Below the pieces are notes generated by a model that was not told the DNA's origin, ran no database searches, and saw only the letters and a list, made by a program, of their open reading frames with translations. A DNA stretch of 35,281 nt. It comes from a virus (taxonomy: Duplodnaviria; Caudoviricetes). Shown in pieces: positions 8,130 through 32,394 of this stretch; position 1 is the first letter of the stretch; the number at the start of each line of letters is the position of its first letter. Location: IMG/VR virus record IMGVR_UViG_3300012953_004391, positions 1-35,281 of that record; one strand, 5' to 3'. A program made the position numbers and the translations under genes.

Positions 8130-8500
8130 AATATTCCTAACTGATATTTTCCTTCATCACTAATCATTTCATCTGGGTTCCATGGTGGATCAAATGTCAA
8201 TGTTACTTTTACTTTGTTAATGCATTCAACTGCTCTAGTGGCAAATTCAACTTCCATAGGGAGTATTTCTGCCGCTGGACAATTAGGAGATGTTAATGTC
8301 ATTATAACATTTGCATCATATTCCTGATTTACTGCTACCTGATAGATTAAACCCATATCATAAACATTCAAATTTATTTCAGGATCATAAACACGTTTGA
8401 GGTTATTAATGATTTGGTCGACTAATTGGTCTTGTAGATTTATAGGACCACCTACCATGTCAGATGCCTCTACTTTTTTATCTTTTCTATCGCTTTCCAT
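8126..8500 (-). CDS. sufT: SUF-associated Fe-S maturation protein (DUF59/SufT/PaaD)
   Basis: VYDPEINLNVYDMGLIY, MTLTSPNCP and LTFDPPW are DUF59 signatures. Start placed at ATG 8500 after GGAAGG. Confidence 0.9.
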   Translation of the reverse strand: MESDRKDKKVEASDMVGGPINLQDQLVDQIINNLKRVYDPEINLNVYDMGLIYQVAVNQEYDANVIMTLTSPNCPAAEILPMEVEFATRAVECINKVKVTLTFDPPWNPDEMISDEGKYQLGIL

Positions 8501-9684
8501 AGTCCTTCCACTAGCATTACACAATCATGCTCATCGTTGTAAGGTGCTGAACTGATTCTTAATACTCCTTTCCCTCCAGAGTATTTATTACTAGCCGGGT
8601 AGGCACATAGGTGTCCGGTCCTTACACAGACATTGTCCAAATCTAAAAATCCAGCAATATCGCTTGGGTGATAATCTTCTACTGTAAATGTATATACACT
8701 TCTTGGTTGTATATCACCAATCAGTTGTATTTCTTGTATGTCAAACAGTCCTTTTTCTTTTAACATATTAAAAAATTCTGCTTCGCATTCTTGTATATCT
8801 TTATATGTAACTTCTTTTATCCATTTAGCCGCCGCACCTAAACTATGTACACCTGCTATATTCTGTGTGCCTGCTTCTATATGCTCTGGTCCTGGATGGG
8901 TTACATAATGGTCAAAATCAACATGACTAACAGTTCCGCCACCTAAATCTCGCTCTTTATTTAAGAAGCCTCCCCTACTAAACAGTACACCTACTCCTGT
9001 TGATGCATACATTTTATGACCACTAAATGCCATATAATCTATATTATTCATCTGCAAATCAACTGCTTTATGCCCTATGCTTTGACATGCATCTACTATT
9101 GTTATACATTCGTTTTCTTTAGCAATCCTGCACATGTCTTGCCAAGGCAGTTCAATTCCAGTTAAATTACTTTGTGTTAAGAAACTTGCTACAGCACCTG
9201 GATGTGTCTTACATGCAGTTTCCCAATCTTCTATGTTTATTGTACCATCATCATTTGCAGGAACAACAACTAGCAATCCATTTAGTGCTGTTCTGCCTTG
9301 CTTCATCCAAGGTAAAATGTTACTGTGATGTTCTAGTTCTGTGATTATAATAGGAGTTTCAATTGGAATCCATTCTGCTATAATATTAATACTGTGAGTA
9401 GTACCGGCTGTGAATGCCACTTCCCAATCCTCACAATTTATTAATCCTGCTATTTCTGTTCTTGCTTTATCATAAATGTCTGATGCTATACCACTTGTTT
9501 TAAAATCTCCTCTGTGAACATTTGCTCTGTAATTATAATGATAATCACTTACTGCCTTTATTGCAGTATCCACAGTTTGTGAACTCGCGGCATTATCCAA
9601 ATATACTAATTCAGTATATGCAATACTAGGAAAGCAATTTCTGATTTCCTTAATACGTTTTGCTTTAGGATAAACTCTTAACAT
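8470..9684 (-). CDS. sufS: cysteine desulfurase, SufS type
   Basis: YLDNAASSQ, ANVHRG, EHHSNILPW, DACQS, SGHKMY (PLP Lys) and RTGHLCA (catalytic Cys). Confidence 0.92.
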   Translation of the reverse strand: MLRVYPKAKRIKEIRNCFPSIAYTELVYLDNAASSQTVDTAIKAVSDYHYNYRANVHRGDFKTSGIASDIYDKARTEIAGLINCEDWEVAFTAGTTHSINIIAEWIPIETPIIITELEHHSNILPWMKQGRTALNGLLVVVPANDDGTINIEDWETACKTHPGAVASFLTQSNLTGIELPWQDMCRIAKENECITIVDACQSIGHKAVDLQMNNIDYMAFSGHKMYASTGVGVLFSRGGFLNKERDLGGGTVSHVDFDHYVTHPGPEHIEAGTQNIAGVHSLGAAAKWIKEVTYKDIQECEAEFFNMLKEKGLFDIQEIQLIGDIQPRSVYTFTVEDYHPSDIAGFLDLDNVCVRTGHLCAYPASNKYSGGKGVLRISSAPYNDEHDCVMLVEGLWKAIEKIKK

Positions 9685-10955
9685 AAAAAACTGTCCACTA
9701 AAATGTTTTTTGCAGATTTTGTATCAAATCCTTTTGTCTGCAGATAATATAATTGTTCTTCGTCTACATTACTTATAGTGCAACCATGTGTACATTCAAT
9801 TTCTTTGGTATAGATATCTAGTATAGGTCTGGTCTGCATTTTAGCAGTTTTAGATAACATTAAATTTGGATTATCCATACTACCTGAAAATCCTTCACTA
9901 GCAGAACTAATTTCAAATTTTCCTATAAAAGATGTTTTAGTTTCATCGTTACCTACATTCCTTATATCTACAGTACTTTTATTGTCGTGATCCGAACTTC
10001 TGACCCTTACAAAATTGTAGTACTCATTACCTTTTGAAATGTTGTTCCTGCCTTGTAAATCTATTTCTACATCTGAACTACATTTAAAATAAAAGTTTTC
10101 TTGTGTATATTGACTTCCTGTGTTTTTAAAATTTATCTTTACAGTACTGCCAGCATGACAAATAAATCTACTGTCAAATATATTCCAGCCGCCATAGTCA
10201 TCTGAATATCTATCTATTTCTAGTGTGCTGTTTTCTCTTACAATGTATGTTGTATAATTTAATTGTCCTGCAAATAGTTTTACTCTTTCTTTTAGTTTAA
10301 CATGAGTATCGTACTGTATATCAAAAATTGTTGTATTAGATTCTAAAACAGGATCATCACATGAATTTTCATATCTTACATCTACTGGATTTTTATAATA
10401 TCTATCATTTGAACCATGTGGGAAAATTATTACATTTGGATAACATGTTGTCCCAAACGTAAAGTTACTAAAATTTCCTGTGTTCTCTATTAACTTTATA
10501 TACTCTGCATGTTTGTGTTTGCTTTTTTTAATGTAGTCTAATACTTGTATTCCAAAAGGCTTTTTCTTATTAACTGCTTCATTTGTAAACACACTACCAT
10601 CAACTAATACCATAGCATTTTTATTTGATGTTGCTAAAAACTCCCATCTGTCTAATTTAGCAAATTTGTCTTTTGATTCTAAAGGACTTAATATATCTAA
10701 ATTGTATAATTTGTTTAAGTTAAAAGTATTAAACTGTTCATCTTTAAAACTAGGTAATTCTTTTTCTCTTAAAAATAATAAATTATCAATGTAACATTTT
10801 GTTAAATCATTATACATATTTCTGTCTGTGTGATGTTTAGTCAGTTTGATATAATCATCACTCACAAGAAAATCATACAACGATTCTAAATTGTAATAAA
10901 ATTCTTTTTGATTACTTAATAGTGGGTATGAAAATAACTGCTTATACACTTTCAA
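9678..10955 (-). CDS. sufD: Fe-S cluster assembly protein SufD (divergent)
   Basis: C-terminal RPILDIYTKEIECTHGCTISNVDEEQLYYLQTKG is typical of SufD; lies between sufC and sufS. Confidence 0.82.
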   Translation of the reverse strand: MKVYKQLFSYPLLSNQKEFYYNLESLYDFLVSDDYIKLTKHHTDRNMYNDLTKCYIDNLLFLREKELPSFKDEQFNTFNLNKLYNLDILSPLESKDKFAKLDRWEFLATSNKNAMVLVDGSVFTNEAVNKKKPFGIQVLDYIKKSKHKHAEYIKLIENTGNFSNFTFGTTCYPNVIIFPHGSNDRYYKNPVDVRYENSCDDPVLESNTTIFDIQYDTHVKLKERVKLFAGQLNYTTYIVRENSTLEIDRYSDDYGGWNIFDSRFICHAGSTVKINFKNTGSQYTQENFYFKCSSDVEIDLQGRNNISKGNEYYNFVRVRSSDHDNKSTVDIRNVGNDETKTSFIGKFEISSASEGFSGSMDNPNLMLSKTAKMQTRPILDIYTKEIECTHGCTISNVDEEQLYYLQTKGFDTKSAKNILVDSFLC

Positions 10956-11637
10956 ATCCTTTGCTGAATATAGTTTGTGCTAAAGTATCATCTCCGATAA
11001 CAACTTCATCTTTTTTAAGCACTATTACAGCATCAGGATTTAAGCCTTCAATAAGTTTTTCATAGTGTGTTACGACAATAAGTGTGTTGTTTTCGTTATG
11101 CCAGTCATTGAGTGTAGTAATTAAAGTCTTAATGCCATCTACATCTAAACCACTGTCTGGCTCATCAAGCATTGCAACTTTTTTATCAAGCATTTGTAAT
11201 TGTATGAGTTCATTTTTCTTTTTCTCACCACCACTTGCATCATCGTTGACATTTCTTTTATCCCAACCTTCTGGAAGATTGAGTGCTCCAGCATTATCTT
11301 TGAACTCAGCCAATGTGGGTGCTATTTCACTTCCTTTGAGATTCAATGCCTGCTTTAGCATTTGGAAATTACTAAGTCCTGGAATACTAGTAGGTGATTG
11401 GAATGCAACAAATAGACCAAGTCTTGCACGTTGGTCAACTTCCAAATCTGTTATATCACTGCCCATAAAAGATAGGTCGCCTTCTACTTGTAAGTCGGGT
11501 CTACCCATTATGCTATGCAGTAATGTACTTTTACCTACACCATTAGAACCCATAACAACATATACTTTGCCTTGTTCAAAGTCTACACTAATGTTTTCTA
11601 GTACATCTTTAACAGAGTAATTTTTTAATCTTAGCAT
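10942..11637 (-). CDS. sufC: Fe-S cluster assembly ABC ATPase SufC
   Basis: Walker A GSNGVGKST, LFVAFQSP..IPG, SGGEKKKNE, LDEPDSGLDVD, VVTHY. Confidence 0.93.
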   Translation of the reverse strand: MLRLKNYSVKDVLENISVDFEQGKVYVVMGSNGVGKSTLLHSIMGRPDLQVEGDLSFMGSDITDLEVDQRARLGLFVAFQSPTSIPGLSNFQMLKQALNLKGSEIAPTLAEFKDNAGALNLPEGWDKRNVNDDASGGEKKKNELIQLQMLDKKVAMLDEPDSGLDVDGIKTLITTLNDWHNENNTLIVVTHYEKLIEGLNPDAVIVLKKDEVVIGDDTLAQTIFSKGFESV

Positions 11638-11643
11638 GGTTGT

Positions 11644-11672
11644 ATTATACGTTCTTTTGTATCCTTTGTCAA
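11644..11672 (-). promoter_or_regulatory. perfect sigma70 promoter TTGACA-17-TATAAT for sufC-D-S-T
   Basis: tgtcaa at 11667-11672, attata at 11644-11649; ATG 6 nt downstream. Confidence 0.8.
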
Positions 11673-11809
11673 TCCTGATTATGCCTAGGATCTTGTTGTT
11701 GTCTAATCCACTCTGCTATTTGTTTTTCTTGTTCTTTAATTGTTTGTGCTTGGTCTTTGATTTTCTTTTCTTCAAACCTAAGTCTTTGCTGTTGTTGTTT
11801 TTGTGCCAT
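11669..11809 (-). CDS. 46-aa Q/K-rich hypothetical protein
   Basis: Manual translation [46 protein letters not shown]. The ATG overlaps the cupin stop (TAATG) and the ORF fills the gap exactly. Confidence 0.7.
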   Translation of the reverse strand: MAQKQQQQRLRFEEKKIKDQAQTIKEQEKQIAEWIRQQQDPRHNQD

Positions 11810-12141
11810 TAGTGATTCCTCCCTCCGTCAAATACACATACAAAGTATAATCCTAAGTGTCCTGTGTTAAACACTCTATGGAACTCTCCATCTTCTATGC
11901 AAATTACATCTCCTGCTATTACAGGAAAACGTTCATCGTCAATTTGCATTTCTCCTTCTCCTTCTACAAAGAAGTAAACTTCCTCTTGTCCTTTGTGTGT
12001 ATGACCATTTGTTTTTTGATTTGCTCGTAAAAATGTACTACTTAATACTAGATTGTTTCCAAAAGCATTGTCTTTCAGCAAATAAGTGGCATTGTCTTTA
12101 ATAACTTCTCCACCAATATCTTTGATTGTGACTTTCTTCAT
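11809..12141 (-). CDS. cupin domain protein
   Basis: [18 protein letters not shown] and [16 protein letters not shown] cupin motifs. Confidence 0.9.
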
Positions 12142-13595
12142 CCAACTGCTCCTTCCAATGTTACATTTAATAAACTATTTGCTTCGGCGGCAAACTCTAA
12201 TGGCAGTTTTTGAAATACATCTTTACAAAAACCATTTACCACTAAGTTTAATGCATCATCCTCATCAAATCCTCTTGTTGCAAGATAATACATTTGCTCT
12301 TCACTAATCTTTCCAGCACTTGCTTCATGCTCTACTTTTGCTGTATCATTATTACTTTCTATATAAGGTATTGTTAATGCCCTGCTATCCTGCAACATCA
12401 AACTATCACACTTGGTAAAGTTTGTTGCATTGGTGGCTCCGGGATTTACTTTTACTTTACCTCTGTAAGTATTTGTACTATCTCCAAAACTAATTCCTTT
12501 TGATATAACTGTGGACTTGGTATTCTTGCCTAAGTGTATCATTTTAGTTCCTGTGTCTGCTTGTTGCTTACCTTTTGTAACTGCAACACTATAAAACTCA
12601 CCTACACTATTGTCGCCTCTTAATATACAACTAGGATACTTCCATGTTACAGCACTACCTGTTTCAACTTGAGTCCAACTAACTTTACTGCTTTCTCCTT
12701 TACACATGGCACGTTTGGTTACAAAATTATATACACCACCCACACCATTTTCATCTCCTGGATACCAATTTTGTACTGTTGAATATTTTATCTCTGCCCT
12801 ATCATGTGTTACCAGTTCTACTACAGCCGCATGTAATGTGTTTTCATCGTATGCTGGAGCAGTACAGCCTTCTAAATAACTAACATAACTGTCATCATCT
12901 GCAACTATTAATGTACGTTCAAATTGTCCTGTGTTACGAGCATTAATTCTAAAATATGTGTTTAGTTCCATAGGACATTTTACGCCTTTTGGAATATAAC
13001 AAAAAGTACCATCTGAGAATACAGCAGAGTTCAGTGTAGCAAAGTAATTGTCTGTGTAAGGAACAACTGTACCTAAATATTTTTTAACCAATTCTGGGTG
13101 GTCTTTAACTGCTTCACTGATACTACAAAACACTATACCGTACTTTTCTAATTCTGCTTTAAATGTAGTTGCAACACTAACACTATCAAATACGGCATCA
13201 ACGGCTACTGTTGGTATAAGATTATCTGGTTTTGGCTTCTCTGTATCTAATCCTAATAATGCATCACGTTCATGTAAAGGTACACCTAACTTTTCAAACG
13301 TGTCTAAAATTTCTTGTGGTATTTCGTCTTTGTTTCTTAACTTGGGGGATGAGTGATAACTTAACTCTTGATAATCAACTGGATTGTAATCTAGTTCACT
13401 CCAGTCTGGCTCATCCATTTGTTTCCATCTTCTATATGCTTTGAGCCTAAATTCTAATAACCAATCTGGTTCATCTTTAATAGCACTAATCTTTCTTACA
13501 ATGTTTTCATCTAATCCAGCAGGAAAGGCATCGCTTTCTAAGTCAGTGACAAAGCCTTGTTCGTATTTTTCTTTATTAAGATTATCAATGCTCAT
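12138..13595 (-). CDS. sufB: Fe-S cluster assembly scaffold SufB
   Basis: [59 protein letters not shown]. 485 aa, no intein. Confidence 0.97.
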
Positions 13596-21267: not shown

Positions 21268-21697
21268 GTTGTGCAACTCTCTGTCTTAGACTTGTACTGC
21301 TAAAACTATGGTCTCTACCATTAAATACCAATTTGATATTTCGGTCTTTACATATCTTTTTACCTGTAAAGTCGTTATCTTTGTATTCGACTCCTAACAC
21401 TCTAACATTTATAGGTAGTGTTAAAAGTAAATCCTCTAGATCCTGCTCTGTCGCATAACAAACAATTTCATCTATATATTTTACAGCCGCTAACTGTATT
21501 TGTCTTTCTACTAAAGTTTGAACTGGCTGATTTTTTGTGTCTGGTCTGTCTATAGTAGGATCTGTCTGTAAACCTACAATCAAATAATCACAATGATGTT
21601 TCGCTTCTTCTAGCATTGTGATATGTCCTGCATGTAGCAAATCGAATGTACTGCAAGTAAATCCGATTTTGCCACAATCTTTATAACTTAATCTCAT
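21242..21697 (-). CDS. glycerol-3-phosphate cytidylyltransferase-like (TagD family)
   Basis: TFDLLHAGH, LIVGLQTD, ER...AVKYIDE and R.HSFSST. Confidence 0.85.
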   Translation of the reverse strand: MRLSYKDCGKIGFTCSTFDLLHAGHITMLEEAKHHCDYLIVGLQTDPTIDRPDTKNQPVQTLVERQIQLAAVKYIDEIVCYATEQDLEDLLLTLPINVRVLGVEYKDNDFTGKKICKDRNIKLVFNGRDHSFSSTSLRQRVAQHENTIKDS

Positions 21698-22137
21698 GCA
21701 AAGTCCTTTAACATTTTTTTAATTTCTAATGCATGTTGTTCTTCTTGTCCAATTTGTCCTCTGGCATATTCTTCTAAATACACACTAGCACCATCGACTT
21801 CTTGTAACAACTTTTTATATAAATTTACAGCATGTGTTTCATGCTCTAAACTTTCTTCAAGTATTTTTAAAATAGAATGGTCATGCGATTCTTCAATGTC
21901 TGCAATAACTTGGCTAGGATGTCCATTCAATCCTGTAATTAGTTCTCCAGCCTGTAAGGCATGTGCTAAACTTTCGTTTGCCTGTTCTTGCAAGAATGTT
22001 ACAATAGGTATTCTATATGGTCCTGTAACCATAAGTGAACTATGTGCATATCTCACAACACCAGCCATTTCATACTCGATAATTTCATTAAGTATTTCAC
22101 ATACTTTCGATTCATTTAATTCTTTCAATTCCATCAT
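21694..22137 (-). CDS. ferritin-like/bacterioferritin protein
   Basis: E..G...Y, ESLAHA, EHE..A...Y and EEQHA diiron ExxH motifs. Confidence 0.85.
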   Translation of the reverse strand: MMELKELNESKVCEILNEIIEYEMAGVVRYAHSSLMVTGPYRIPIVTFLQEQANESLAHALQAGELITGLNGHPSQVIADIEESHDHSILKILEESLEHETHAVNLYKKLLQEVDGASVYLEEYARGQIGQEEQHALEIKKMLKDFA

Positions 22138-22914: not shown

Positions 22915-23343
22915 TTAGTAATGCCCTAAATTTCTCTGACGAAGTTGTTGGCGCATTTTAGCATCACGCATTTTTCTAGACTTGCGTTTGCTTTTCATCC
23001 ACTTGACACCAGTCAACTCATATTGTTTCATATCACCACGAGCCTCTGCATCACGTACCCAACGTTCCCAACGTTTTTTAGCCTGTTGTTTTTTACGTTT
23101 ACGTTTTTCACTTGGCTTTTCGTAGTATTGTTGTTTTGCCAATTCTTTTTGGAAGTCGGACTTTTCAAGTTTTTTCTTAAGAACTCTGATTGCTTTGTTT
23201 ACATCTCCATTCCTAACTTCGACCTCTGCTTTGAACCTATCTAAATAATGTTCTTCTTTTTTAGGTCTGTCATCTCTTTTACGTTGATTAAACGATTTTG
23301 TATAAGTTTTATTTCTTTGATTTTGATTGCTTCTATTTTTCAA
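22915..23343 (-). CDS. rpsU: 30S ribosomal protein bS21 with N- and C-terminal extensions
   Basis: VEVRNGDVNKAIRVLKKK...QYYEKPSEKRKRKK..A.KR core; TTG start after GAGG. Confidence 0.85.
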   Translation of the reverse strand: MKNRSNQNQRNKTYTKSFNQRKRDDRPKKEEHYLDRFKAEVEVRNGDVNKAIRVLKKKLEKSDFQKELAKQQYYEKPSEKRKRKKQQAKKRWERWVRDAEARGDMKQYELTGVKWMKSKRKSRKMRDAKMRQQLRQRNLGHY

Positions 23344-23344
23344 G

Positions 23345-24601
23345 TTAACCTCTTAATTTAATTTTGTAATCCTTATCTGTGACTTCATTGCCATTATTAT
23401 AATAGAAAATTGGGTGCGTGTCAACATCTTTGGTAGGATAAGTTTTAAATTTTACCTTTACCACGCCAGATTCCTTTAGTTTAGGGCCTCTGAACATGAT
23501 GTTATGTAAACTAACTTCTATAATACTTTTCAGTCCTCTAGCACCAATTTTATTTTTTCTAGCCAATTTGGCAACATCTTTATAATACTGTTCTTCAAAT
23601 TCTAATTCTATTTCATCAAACTCCATAAGTTTTTTAACTTGTGGAATTATACTAGCATCAGATTTTTTAAGTATTGTAACCATATGTTGTTCTTCTAACT
23701 CTTCTAATGTTACAATGTTTGGCAATCTACCTACCAGTTCTGGTATAAGACCAAAAGATATTAAATCTCTGTGGTCTATGCTTTCCTGCCATGCTGTATC
23801 ATCTTTTGTATTAAGTTTAGAATTGAATCCCATATTCTTTTTGTTAATTCTTGCATTAACTAATTTTTCTATACCAACAAATGCTCCACTACATATAAAC
23901 AATATATCTGTTGTGTCAACATCTACATAGTCAGGTCTTTTTGTGCCTGTTGAAGGTATTTTTACAACTGTGCCTTCTATTAATCTTAAAAGTGCTTGTT
24001 GTACACCTTCACCACTAATATCCTTTGTACTGGCGTTAGATTCACTGCTACGAGCCTTTTTATCTATTTCATCTAAGAATACAATTCCATGTTGAGCAAC
24101 CGAAACGTCCCAATTACATTGATGTAATAATCTTTCTATCACACTTTCTACATCTTCACCAACATAACCTGCTTCAGTTAATGTTGTAGCATCAGCAATA
24201 GTGAAAGGAACATTTAATCTTTTTGCAAGAGTTTTAGCAAGTAAAGTTTTACCACTACCTGTTGGTCCTAACATAACAACATTACTTTTTTCTATTTTAG
24301 GTTCTTCATCTCCATAAAATAATCTTTTGTAGTGATTGTATGCTACAACACTTAAAACTTCTTTTGCATGGTCTTGACTAATAACAACATTATTCAAATG
24401 TTCATTTATTTCATTAGGTGTGGGGATTTCTGCTATGTCTAAATCATCTATAGGATTTTCATCATTTATAATCTTATGACTAATACTAATACATTCATTG
24501 CAAATGTATGAATTAGGGCCGGCTATTAATTTCTTAACTTCGTTTCTACTTTTACCACAAAAACTACAAGTTAGATTTTTATCATTTGTTGTGTCTGTCA
24601 T
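23345..24601 (-). CDS. clpX: ATP-dependent Clp protease ATP-binding subunit ClpX
   Basis: CSFC..CNEC zinc domain, [34 protein letters not shown] loop, GARGL. Confidence 0.97.
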
Positions 24602-25302
24602 TTTTTAATAGTATATCTCGTTTCAGTGTTATCATCGTCGCCATCCGTTGGTAAAGGAATAGCCCAAAAGCCTAACTTATTATTTACTTCTTCAGCACTT
24701 AAATCCTTCAACATAGTGAGTATTTCTTCTGTGCTTAAATCGTTTACATTCATTTCACTGTTTGCAATTAATGTAGCCGCGGCTTTAAGGTCGCCTGTAG
24801 CAGGCAATTCTATAGTCTGGGGTCTGCGTGGTCCTTCAACAACTTTTTCCTTGATAACTTCAACTTCCTTGATAACTTCAACCGGTACTTCTTTTATTAC
24901 TTCTCTCTCAACAATTCGCTCTGGTCCTGGGACCTCGACTTCTTTAATAACCTCGACAATCTTTTCGACCTCGACAGGTTTCTCAACAATCTTTTCCTTC
25001 TCAACAATCTTCTCGACTTCGACATGGACAGGCACCTCCTTTTCTACTACCTTTTCTACTGTTTTTGTTTTGGGTTTTGCTTTTAACTTTTTTTCTAAAG
25101 TTGCTATTTGTGATTCAAGTTCGTGTATTTTTAGATTATACATCTGTTCTTGTTTTGTGGATAATGGAACGACTACTTCTCTGATTGTTTCTTTTGGTTT
25201 CTTTTCTAATTTGGTTAGTGCATCATCTAACATAGATAATGTATTACCATATCGTTCCCATAAACTGTCTAATGCTGATTGCAGTTCTTTTTTAGTTGTC
25301 AT
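24598..25302 (-). CDS. hypothetical protein with V/E/K-rich (VEKIVE/VIKEVE) repeats
   Basis: Low-complexity repeat core flanked by helical segments. Confidence 0.75.
   Translation of the reverse strand: MTTKKELQSALDSLWERYGNTLSMLDDALTKLEKKPKETIREVVVPLSTKQEQMYNLKIHELESQIATLEKKLKAKPKTKTVEKVVEKEVPVHVEVEKIVEKEKIVEKPVEVEKIVEVIKEVEVPGPERIVEREVIKEVPVEVIKEVEVIKEKVVEGPRRPQTIELPATGDLKAAATLIANSEMNVNDLSTEEILTMLKDLSAEEVNNKLGFWAIPLPTDGDDDNTETRYTIKK
24847..24882. repeat. perfect 18-bp tandem duplication (ttccttgataacttcaac x2) within a longer degenerate coding repeat
   Basis: 24847-24864 is identical to 24865-24882; encodes VEVIKE twice. Confidence 0.85.
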
Positions 25303-26926
25303 CCTTGTCCAACCTCTGCTTTAACTTTTTTTCTAAGTCTAAAATTGCTTTGGGCGGATTTAAGTCTAGTTTGATATCTTTTTCTTTTGTGACTACTTTT
25401 TCAACTATAACTTCTTTTGGTTTTTCTTGTAGTTGTTTTTCTAGTTCTTCTATTTTTGCCTGATTAGCCGCCGCTTCTGCCATTGCCACAGCCGCATCAT
25501 CTACTGCTGATGGCATTTCATCTCTGTCGAAATATTCTACACTAGTAGGTCCACTAGTGTCACGTAACTCGTCACCATTCTCCCCTGATTGTCGTAAATG
25601 TATGTCGTCGCTTGTTGAGTTGTCCCTTGGTTCACTATCTTGTAAACCACCTGTTTCGATAACGTTTCCGGTTGGCTCAGAGACTTTACCGAGGTCGTCG
25701 GAATGCTCTGAATCGGTGTAATACTGTTTACTTCCATTACCATCTCCTTTTGGTCCTGTTTTTTCTAAGTTTATCCCATATCTAAGTAATGTTTGGTTGG
25801 CGGCAATAATCAATACGACTGCTAGTGGATCAAAAACGAATACTAGCATCAATATGAATAGTCTAACTGCTTGGTCTAAATAGCCTTGACTATCACCGCC
25901 GTAAATTAGTTCTGCTACATATTTGATTGGTCCAACTTCCATTTCTAAGTCTCTTACTATGCTTTCTGCTTCAAACTTTTCGTCTTTTAGTAATGCAATG
26001 TTGTCGTAAAGATTATCTATGTCTGTGTTGAATTCATCTATCTTCTGTAGGTTTGTGTCTTGTTGGTCTGTGCTTTGATTTCTCAATCTGTTTATTTCTG
26101 CATTTGCATCATCAATAACTTTTTGTGCTTGGGCTCTATAGTTATCTATTGTATCTTGAAATACTTTGATGTCTGCACTTGCAGTTTGTCTTATAGTGTT
26201 CTTTTCTTCTTTTATGGTATCACGTTCTGGTTTTTGATTTGCAAACAATTCATTTGCTTGAGCAACGTAATCTATCTTTTCTGTTTCCGCTTGTCTAAAT
26301 GCACCACCTTCATCTAGTGTAACAACTTCTACACCTTTTGCTCTAAGGTCATTTACGGATTTATCTAGTGCGGCTAGTCTACTATCTAATTGTGCAAGGT
26401 CTTCTTTTAGTTGAGCTCTGACGTTTTCTATCTGTTCTTGATTATAATCTATATCACCTTGTACTCTTGCCCATGCACCATCTCTAATTTCTTCTTGTTG
26501 ACTAATACTTTGGCTTACATCTGTTGATCCGCCTAATGCAAGTATTCTATCTTCTATTATTTCTATTTTATTTTCTTCTCTAGCAATTTGTCCATCAATT
26601 CTTTCTACTGTGGCAAATGCTGAACTACTTTCTCCTGCTTGATCCAAATGTGCTTTTGACAAATATCCAAAAATACCCATACTTGTTATAAGCATTAATA
26701 CAACCACGGCTGTAGATAGATACACTTTTAATAGCATAGTGGTTTCGTTCCAATATCTATATAGCCAACTTGCTGTAAGTAATTTACCTACTTCAAGTGT
26801 ACCTGCCATAATAGCAATAGGAACTGCTGAGGCACTGAAAATCGCCATAAGACCTTCTATGGAAAACCAAGCGGCTACGCCAGCGATGGCGATAGCGGTG
26901 AACAATGTGAATAGACCAAACAACAT
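25292..26926 (-). CDS. membrane-anchored long coiled-coil phage protein
   Basis: Three N-terminal TM helices (LEVGKL, TSMGIFGYLSKAH), a long coiled coil, then EVGPIKYVAE and FVFDPLAV TM segment. Confidence 0.85.
   Translation of the reverse strand: MLFGLFTLFTAIAIAGVAAWFSIEGLMAIFSASAVPIAIMAGTLEVGKLLTASWLYRYWNETTMLLKVYLSTAVVVLMLITSMGIFGYLSKAHLDQAGESSSAFATVERIDGQIAREENKIEIIEDRILALGGSTDVSQSISQQEEIRDGAWARVQGDIDYNQEQIENVRAQLKEDLAQLDSRLAALDKSVNDLRAKGVEVVTLDEGGAFRQAETEKIDYVAQANELFANQKPERDTIKEEKNTIRQTASADIKVFQDTIDNYRAQAQKVIDDANAEINRLRNQSTDQQDTNLQKIDEFNTDIDNLYDNIALLKDEKFEAESIVRDLEMEVGPIKYVAELIYGGDSQGYLDQAVRLFILMLVFVFDPLAVVLIIAANQTLLRYGINLEKTGPKGDGNGSKQYYTDSEHSDDLGKVSEPTGNVIETGGLQDSEPRDNSTSDDIHLRQSGENGDELRDTSGPTSVEYFDRDEMPSAVDDAAVAMAEAAANQAKIEELEKQLQEKPKEVIVEKVVTKEKDIKLDLNPPKAILDLEKKLKQRLDKDDN
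25537..25737 (-). CDS. nested out-of-frame 66-aa protein
   Basis: AAGGAG (25749-25744) 6 nt before ATG 25737; protein-like sequence ending YIYDNQG...VDLLV. Confidence 0.6.
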   Translation of the reverse strand: MEVNSITPIQSIPTTSVKSLSQPETLSKQVVYKIVNQGTTQQATTYIYDNQGRMVTSYVTLVDLLV

Positions 26927-31302: not shown

Positions 31303-32394
31303 TCAGTCAACACAGGCTCCGGAGCCAATTTGTGTTATCATACCAGAGTTAATGGCTTGTTGCCATAACTGTCCACTGGCTAGGTTTTTTGCCTTTGCTT
31401 CGCACTGGATGTCGAAGTCTTGCCAAAATGTCAATGCCCATTCATTAGTTTTTTCATTAGGGTAAAAGTCCGAGTGTGCTCTAAGTTTTTGTTTCTTACA
31501 ACCTAAATCGAGTAAGGACTGTATGTCATGCATAGTTCCATGTTTGTCTGTCCCTTCAAGCAAGGATGGGTCAGGTAGCCATTCATCCCGGCTATAACTA
31601 TAATGTAAAGCAGGGCGGACACCACGCCAACTATCAATAATCCTTTTAATACGGTCATCATTCGCTTGTATATATTCTTCATCTCTAATCCAATGGTGGT
31701 GTATGTCTAAGACTAACGCCACATGTTTTTCTAATTTCAAAGACTCATCTAGTCCCCAACACATCTCATCATTCTCGATTGTAATAGTGTTACGGGCCTC
31801 AGGTGAAAGTCTCGGTAATGTTTGTATGATTCCTTCTGCACCATGCCTACCAGATATGTGTACATTAATTTTCATGTCTTGGAACTCTTTACCATAACCC
31901 ATCCAACGTGCCATGTTTGCATGATACTCAAATTCATCAATGCTACGTTCTACAACATCAGGCTTGTCGCTAGCCAATACGCAAAACTGCCCAGGATGGA
32001 AACTAATACGCACATCAAGAGCACGAGCCAGTTCGCCCACCTTGGCGAATCCTTTCTCCAGCATTCTGATATTATCAGGATCGTCCCACATGTAGCGAAA
32101 GTTTGGCTCAGTAGCCATAGGTATTTGATTACTTCCAAGACGTACCATCCTCCTGTTCTCAGGTAGACTGCCTACCCATTTCACAAGATTGTAGGCACTT
32201 TGCATGTTGTGTTCTATTAGATCCAACATACGTTGCTCCGCAACAGACTTTTCTTGTCGTTTGCACCAAGCAACAGTAGTTACCTTTTCTGTGTAGTTCT
32301 GCTGTATCTCCTTAAGGATCTTAGGCTTTTGCGTCTGATCCGGGTCCAGATATTTGCAACAGAAACCAATGCGTTGTATAGATTCGTCAAACAT
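31303..32394 (-). CDS. uvsE: UV damage endonuclease UvsE/UVDE
   Basis: RIGFCC, RISFHPGQF, IENDE, LDIHHH, LHYS, AHSDF, EAKAK. Start reassigned to ATG 32394. Confidence 0.92.
   Translation of the reverse strand: MFDESIQRIGFCCKYLDPDQTQKPKILKEIQQNYTEKVTTVAWCKRQEKSVAEQRMLDLIEHNMQSAYNLVKWVGSLPENRRMVRLGSNQIPMATEPNFRYMWDDPDNIRMLEKGFAKVGELARALDVRISFHPGQFCVLASDKPDVVERSIDEFEYHANMARWMGYGKEFQDMKINVHISGRHGAEGIIQTLPRLSPEARNTITIENDEMCWGLDESLKLEKHVALVLDIHHHWIRDEEYIQANDDRIKRIIDSWRGVRPALHYSYSRDEWLPDPSLLEGTDKHGTMHDIQSLLDLGCKKQKLRAHSDFYPNEKTNEWALTFWQDFDIQCEAKAKNLASGQLWQQAINSGMITQIGSGACVD

Follow-up and report, generated by a model that had tools for sequence, protein, structure and literature searches.

The window, meaning the whole 35,281-nucleotide stretch of DNA that we analysed, comes from a marine jumbo phage; the sequencing runs that contain it are marine, except for one synthetic metagenome. 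On its minus strand a short gene lies wholly inside a long one, and the features are as follows.

25292 to 26926, minus strand: host gene, 544 aa (open reading frame, AlphaFold model, homologue search)
25508 to 25780, minus strand: disordered acidic linker of the host protein, residues 383-473, enclosing the inner gene (AlphaFold, composition)
25744 to 25749, minus strand: Shine-Dalgarno-like AAGGAG, spelled by host codons K-G-D (sequence, comparison of nested copies)
25537 to 25737, minus strand: inner gene, 66 aa, in the host +1 frame (open reading frame listing, AlphaFold, substitution pattern)
25481 to 25513, minus strand: motif PSAVDDAA..M in the host frame, residues 472-482, shared by filled and empty alleles (homologue comparison)
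24598 to 25302, minus strand: downstream 234-aa gene with KEV/EKIV repeats, context (open reading frame listing, relatives)
23345 to 24601, minus strand: phage clpX, context (annotation search)

We call the 66-aa open reading frame the inner gene and the 544-aa open reading frame around it the host gene; a small gene that stands by itself is free. Host alleles with a nested small gene are filled, and those without one are empty.

The layout that the initial annotation had described stands. The inner frame (25737-25537) lies inside the host gene (26926-25292), on the same strand and in its +1 frame, and covers host residues ~397-464. The AAGGAG reported 6 nt before the ATG at 25737 is present at 25749-25744; an upstream in-frame ATG at 25743 abuts it, and from there the inner gene would be 68 aa long. 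Many inner codons do end in G (38%). The DNA had also been called richer in G and C than its flanks. This holds against most of the host gene (45.5% GC at 25500-25699 versus 33-38%), but two other stretches of the host and downstream genes, 24800-25099 and 26700-26899, reach 40-43%.

The host protein consists of hydrophobic N-terminal helices (residues 1-92), a long coiled coil, a hydrophobic segment (350-381) and a tail that is presumed to be cytoplasmic. In its AlphaFold model residues 383-473 are coil, with a pLDDT of ~30-40, and helix returns at 474-501, in keeping with the earlier description of a disordered linker after which the host structure resumes. The host family is found in SCTP-2/XacN1-like jumbo phages and in T4-like phages, and its members sit on contigs of up to 340 kb; in Salicola jumbo phage SCTP-2, too, the homologue has clpX as its neighbour. 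In some relatives (L012, L018, L041-L045) the host gene and the downstream repeat gene form a single fusion of 630-650 aa, and in L038 and L040 the repeat gene is split in two. An antisense, S/T/F-rich open reading frame of 232 aa over the repeat gene (24626-25324, plus strand) is probably a shadow of the KEV repeats. Runs of 9-10 A occur in the host-gene tail of L047 (~4392), L049 (~4371), L011, L012, L014 and L015; in L047 and L049 a host-frame stop lies 12 nt from the beginning of the run, and the repeat sequence goes on in another frame. The host gene and repeat gene of the window have no A run above 7. Elsewhere the window, a 35-kb virus record, encodes uvdE, phage-borne SUF iron-sulphur genes (8470-13595), a ferritin-like gene (21694-22137) and ribosomal protein S21 (22915-23343).

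Could the inner frame be a shadow of the host frame, or an artefact of assembly? Chance alone would give ~0.66 such +1 runs per window, and although the inner-gene run is the longest in the window at 75 codons, the next are 73 and 67; open reading frame length by itself is not beyond chance. The exact inner protein is also absent from 15 billion predicted proteins, among which its host protein is present. What takes the inner gene beyond chance is its conservation in relatives, together with the substitution pattern described below. An assembly error that removed a stop from the long frame had been raised as a possible explanation. Two contigs from other public runs (X10 record 2, X7 record 26) cross the region with zero indels, and since they are independent, such an error is excluded for the nested layout. 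With free homologues and a codon-position shift also against it, a shadow or an artefact is barely credible. The +1 runs next in length in the window, in uvdE (31950-32138 and 31503-31682, minus strand), have stops and starts that shift in five relatives and are probably shadows, not genes.

AGGA, GGAG or GAGG lies upstream of the inner start in 16 of 19 nested copies, but AGGA, spelled by T/A/K-G-P, is also found in 12 of 23 empty host alleles, so that it is no evidence for an inner gene by itself. In several nested relatives the inner TAG comes from the V-D codons (GTA GAT) of the PS[AS]VD motif. Host codons may favour the site, with T/A/K-G-P spelling AGGA and V-D able to supply TAG. Scanning for promoters and terminators gave a chance-level result (9 against 7.4 expected), and the one metatranscriptome with the stretch has it as contigs only, which is no proof of transcription.

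Small gene and host gene occur in three arrangements. Among 51 close host-gene loci, 48 reach the tail; 13 of these have an open +1 frame with the same motifs, and 35 have none. Distant host homologues are nested in 7 of 83 cases and empty in 76. Searching with the small protein gave 49 loci, of which 16 were nested, 31 free and 2 spurious, and then 17 more, 1 nested and 16 free, for a total of 47 free loci. It was profiles that recovered these relatives (50-81 aa); the 66-aa peptide used as a single query in a protein search had no match. Free-standing homologues in many phages bear out the earlier suggestion that the small gene is pre-existing and independent. Matches at L004, L078 and L079 were spurious and were dropped. 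One profile search returned 134 matches, 14 of them short single-stretch proteins and the rest multi-stretch repeat proteins, which we also dropped as family members because only a YD-like hairpin matched.

Every nested copy is in the host +1 frame, with both frames open. Fifteen of 16 enclosing open reading frames match the host family (P0002), the sixteenth being a fragment of the L070 contig; L152 and the seven distant loci agree, and no nesting in any other gene family was found among the loci examined. The nested hosts include the long type of the window, a 36%-identical homologue (L064) and the short types L070 and L152, and several sites in the host tail are used. Free copies lie in many unrelated neighbourhoods, often abutting or overlapping a neighbour's stop.

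Such fidelity to one gene family, in jumbo and T4-like phages and at several tail sites, might reflect functional coupling: the small protein would work with the membrane protein, as an o-spanin does with an i-spanin, and nesting would ensure co-expression and co-inheritance. Most host alleles are empty, however, among close and distant homologues alike, and homologous recombination alone accounts for the family fidelity. No free copy was found in six partial genomes with empty hosts (18-32% complete), and no host homologue in the flanks of free copies or in five partial genomes with free copies (24-62% complete); these are fragments, and absence from them weighs little. A complex prediction for the two proteins scored 0.00, which is no answer and weighs neither way. 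We regard coupling as unlikely.

If the inner frame is a gene, its codons should show it. In the relative L006, whose host protein is 91% identical to that of the window, the overlap differs by 16 substitutions, which fall 13/1/2 on host codon positions 1/2/3; upstream of the overlap the counts are 7/5/26 (Fisher p 2.3e-5). Thirteen of the 16 are at third positions of inner codons, and they change 2 inner residues versus 14 outer ones. The same shift was seen in five further divergent pairs, for example L025/L069 (27/13/10 in the overlap, 8/4/32 outside) and L009/L025 (32/15/7 and 29/18/48), with the caveat that the nested copies are related and the genomes differ in GC, so that p-values overstate independence. 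Public runs list a single SNP in the overlap (25654), and it is a synonymous change for the inner protein. Three very close pairs lack the shift: L169 against L170, L171 and L172 gives 0/2/0, 1/1/0 and 0/2/0, mostly non-synonymous in the inner frame; two other pairs were identical. We conclude from the divergent comparisons that purifying selection is evidently acting on the inner frame.

The outer frame is constrained in another way. A host stop arises where an inner codon ending in T precedes a codon starting AA, AG or GA. At such junctions T is found at 0 of 196 positions in 16 nested copies, whereas 10 free copies have it at 63 of 148, and shuffling synonymous codons would leave 4-7 host-frame stops per copy; this zero is partly circular, because an open host frame is what defines a copy as nested. 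Nested copies are poor in T even at junctions that carry no stop risk (96/558 nested, 131/364 free). Two observations escape the circularity. The first is that the small gene was never found behind a truncated host (all 13 close and all 7 distant nested loci are open). The second is composition: D and E make up 20.1% and F, W, Y and C 1.1% of the outer frame in 18 nested copies, whereas the corresponding frame has 6.5% and 15.7% in 16 free ones. Residue identity in the outer frame is conserved weakly, while openness and composition are kept. The simplest reading is that the outer frame is translated and has to remain acidic and disordered, as a spacer before the conserved C-terminal motifs. 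The dual coding that the initial annotation had proposed is borne out by these two patterns, and on sequence grounds it is very probably real.

How did one gene come to lie within the other? The initial annotation held that the host gene had lost its stop, extended through a downstream small gene and gained a new tail. A free family of small genes that was already in existence suits this account, as does the finding that just 16 host residues follow the small gene in L152 and L168; with 3-12 outer-frame stops in the free copies, the first capture may have passed through a truncated intermediate. But the empty alleles already have the downstream tail. Most of the 35 empty close homologues have a shorter linker that is likewise followed by PS[AS]V[DE]DAA..M, and even the short C-terminal motif after the L168 cassette is present without a cassette. 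Nor does any of the host homologues examined end near the small gene's start, around 25760 in the window, where a stop had been thought possible. As a general route, extension is contradicted, and we consider it very unlikely.

Filled and empty alleles of distant homologues match on either side of the cassette, and pairs of them show what differs instead. Filled L070 and empty L185 are identical at 218 of 229 core residues (95%); they differ by an in-frame insert of ~80 codons that holds the gene, and by a separate indel of ~13 codons. The L070 insert follows PSAVDDAANVMS, a different site from that in the window, where the gene precedes that motif. The tails of filled L168 and empty L203 are 120 and 54 aa long, a difference of 66 codons, and both keep the C-terminal motif GL.T...RRP[IV]. 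These comparisons make in-frame insertion and exchange of a cassette the probable route to nesting. One nested copy (L080:2789-2926) is shortened to 45 aa, on a long branch and with its outer frame still open; it is possibly a decaying cassette.

The host tail itself is a patchwork of exchangeable modules, as short motifs recur in mixed order: IDWD[HR]AP, PS[AS]V[DE]DAA..M and FEEQ.R..YGDNMPD are found in long- and short-type tails (for example in L069, L070, L175, L176, L188, L010, L029 and L041-L045). In three runs a contig matches just the 37 nt of window positions 25489-25525, the RDEMPSAVDDAA codons, with differing flanks, so this motif also occurs in another gene or allele of the same samples.

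On the host tree, built from 41 rows without duplicates or truncated loci, nested copies are scattered and require six changes, at least three of them forced by starred branches. Similar hosts can have dissimilar inner genes, as in L008, a 79%-identical host with an inner gene only 24-27% identical, and the reverse is seen in dissimilar hosts. Cassettes of short-type L070 and long-type L040 share 73% DNA identity over 202 nt, and those of L064 and L028 share 75% over 165 nt. Trees of the inner protein are unrooted and have 68-69 columns, which do not settle gain versus loss or the number of captures; in AU tests a single nested origin was neither rejected nor shown (p 0.068 for nested copies only, 0.229 with L060). 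The free copy L060 falls inside a nested clade (97/88 with L025 and L069; 98/96 for the wider clade). It keeps a nested-like codon bias (G3 27%, T3 15%) and an interrupted host-like -1 frame, which suggests that it escaped from the nested state. Fresh capture should be rare, given that free copies carry so many outer-frame stops. It would be more economical for cassettes already rid of such stops to spread through recombination among members of the host family than for fresh captures to recur.

Perhaps, then, the inner gene was born by overprinting in the host tail, and the free copies across T4-like phages are escapees? L060, with its position, codon bias and -1 frame, fits such a birth; several other free copies have just 3-5 stops, and nested copies plus L060 as one clade are not rejected (p-AU 0.23). 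The properties of the two frames point the other way. The inner frame is folded (pLDDT ~90), constrained and more widely distributed, whereas the outer linker (pLDDT ~30) is variable and bound to the cassette, and the distribution criterion set out in a section of PMC8227390 makes the inner frame ancestral. Language-model look-alikes of the inner protein, of similar size, form at least 30 unnamed clusters in viruses and bacteria, although these are leads without alignment. The initial annotation's term "overprinted" thus fits the wrong partner: it is the outer linker that is weakly constrained and narrowly distributed. With 47 free-standing loci, and an inner frame neither faster-evolving nor more disordered than the outer one, we rejected classical overprinting; de novo birth in some form is improbable.

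AlphaFold models of nine inner sequences have a three-strand antiparallel sheet (beta-meander) at residues 27-63, with a pLDDT of ~90, after a disordered N-terminus. A Y-x-x-x-G hairpin is invariant in the family, and the C-terminal strand is hydrophobic. No named family for the inner or the host protein emerged from PHROGs, NCBIfam, Pfam or PDB sequence and fold searches; GenBank phages gave no match for two inner-family members, and none of nine pattern matches in GTDB genomes was confirmed. The best Foldseek E values for the inner protein were 0.27 (PDB) and 0.023 (viral), and the best VIA structural match had Z 3.9 and rmsd 3.4 over 45 aligned residues. Its Atlas neighbours DUF3879, TP_0700 and DUF6033 scored 0.83-0.90 with ~100 or fewer shared features, below the bar. 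We tentatively suggest that the inner protein may be a small soluble cytoplasmic factor that binds a partner protein through its exposed sheet edge and hydrophobic C-terminal strand. It may act independently of the host protein, because most host alleles are empty and the host gene is absent from around free copies, as far as fragments tell.

We propose that the small gene is the older partner and that it entered the tolerant tail of a membrane-protein family. Its outer-frame stops would then have been purged, leaving a portable in-frame cassette. Recombination between family members would have carried this cassette from one host allele to another and from jumbo to T4-like phages or back, with an occasional return to the state of a free gene (L060). 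The inner gene is likely translated from its own ribosome-binding site, and translation in the host frame would turn this stretch into an acidic spacer ahead of the conserved C-terminal motifs. Whether these loci form a natural class of portable gene-in-gene cassettes is a broader claim, to which we give somewhat better than even odds: such cassettes would read as a harmless acidic spacer in their -1 frame, spread in frame among the tails of one family across jumbo and T4-like marine phages, swap between subtypes and re-emerge as free genes.

Were such a class to exist, the birth, transfer and dissolution of an overlap could all be read from one family. The family offers natural before-and-after pairs in which to measure recoding when two frames constrain one sequence (purged stops, wobble positions rich in G and poor in T, an acidic linker), and with them design hints for synthetic gene entanglement. 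It is also a case of a conserved phage gene missed by gene callers, with the inner protein absent from predicted proteins and the host protein present.

Known systems resemble the locus in part. The YD/RHS repeat (PF05593, TIGR01643) shares a T-Y-x-Y-[DN]-x-x-G-x-L hairpin with the inner protein, a weak match (E 0.0048, 17.7 bits; cut-off 22). The inner protein differs in having a single hairpin in 60-75 aa and N- and C-terminal motifs of its own, with neither a tandem array nor an Rhs core, and we rejected its assignment to the RHS/YD-repeat proteins on the basis of this single sub-threshold hairpin. In apple stem grooving virus the movement protein overlaps a polyprotein linker, with a conserved inner and a fast outer frame, 4% versus 39% (PMC8227390). 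Evolution is similarly asymmetric here, with 2 versus 14 changes of 66. That virus, however, is an RNA plant virus, and the passage concerned describes no filled/empty polymorphism or cassette exchange.

The two-component spanins Rz/Rz1 resemble the locus in layout, a small gene in the +1 frame of a phage gene for a membrane and coiled-coil protein (PMC6139136). The inner protein has no cysteine in any family member (0/36) and hence no lipobox; its median best 15-residue hydropathy is 0.67, without a signal-like segment, and we discarded the idea of an Rz1-type outer-membrane lipoprotein. The host differs as well, in having several hydrophobic helices, with the overlap after the last. Neighbours are the repeat protein, clpX and rpS21, with lysozyme and cell-wall hydrolase genes 3-7 kb away on the contig. 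Spanin genes are embedded, overlapped or separated, and according to the section cited no spanin family mixes embedded and separated members (PMC6139136), unlike the inner family, which does.

Nested genes are usually accounted for by de novo overprinting or by read-through extension, and the alleles here point to a third route, whole-gene insertion in an alternate frame, which we found described solely as an engineered design. Full-text searching of the literature library used turned up no account of this family, nor of any natural cassette with filled, empty and free alleles. In the engineered design, overlapping alternate-frame insertion (OAFI; 10.1101/2024.11.07.622342), an inner gene with its own RBS, and with outer stops removed, is placed in a permissive region of tetA. 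As far as the cited passage describes it, OAFI and the phage cassette share a complete inner gene, its own RBS, a membrane-embedded outer gene and a weakly constrained outer insert. The phage cassette differs from OAFI in being natural, since wild phages have it in filled, empty and free form, and in an outer-frame selection on composition that, by the same passage, was not designed into OAFI.
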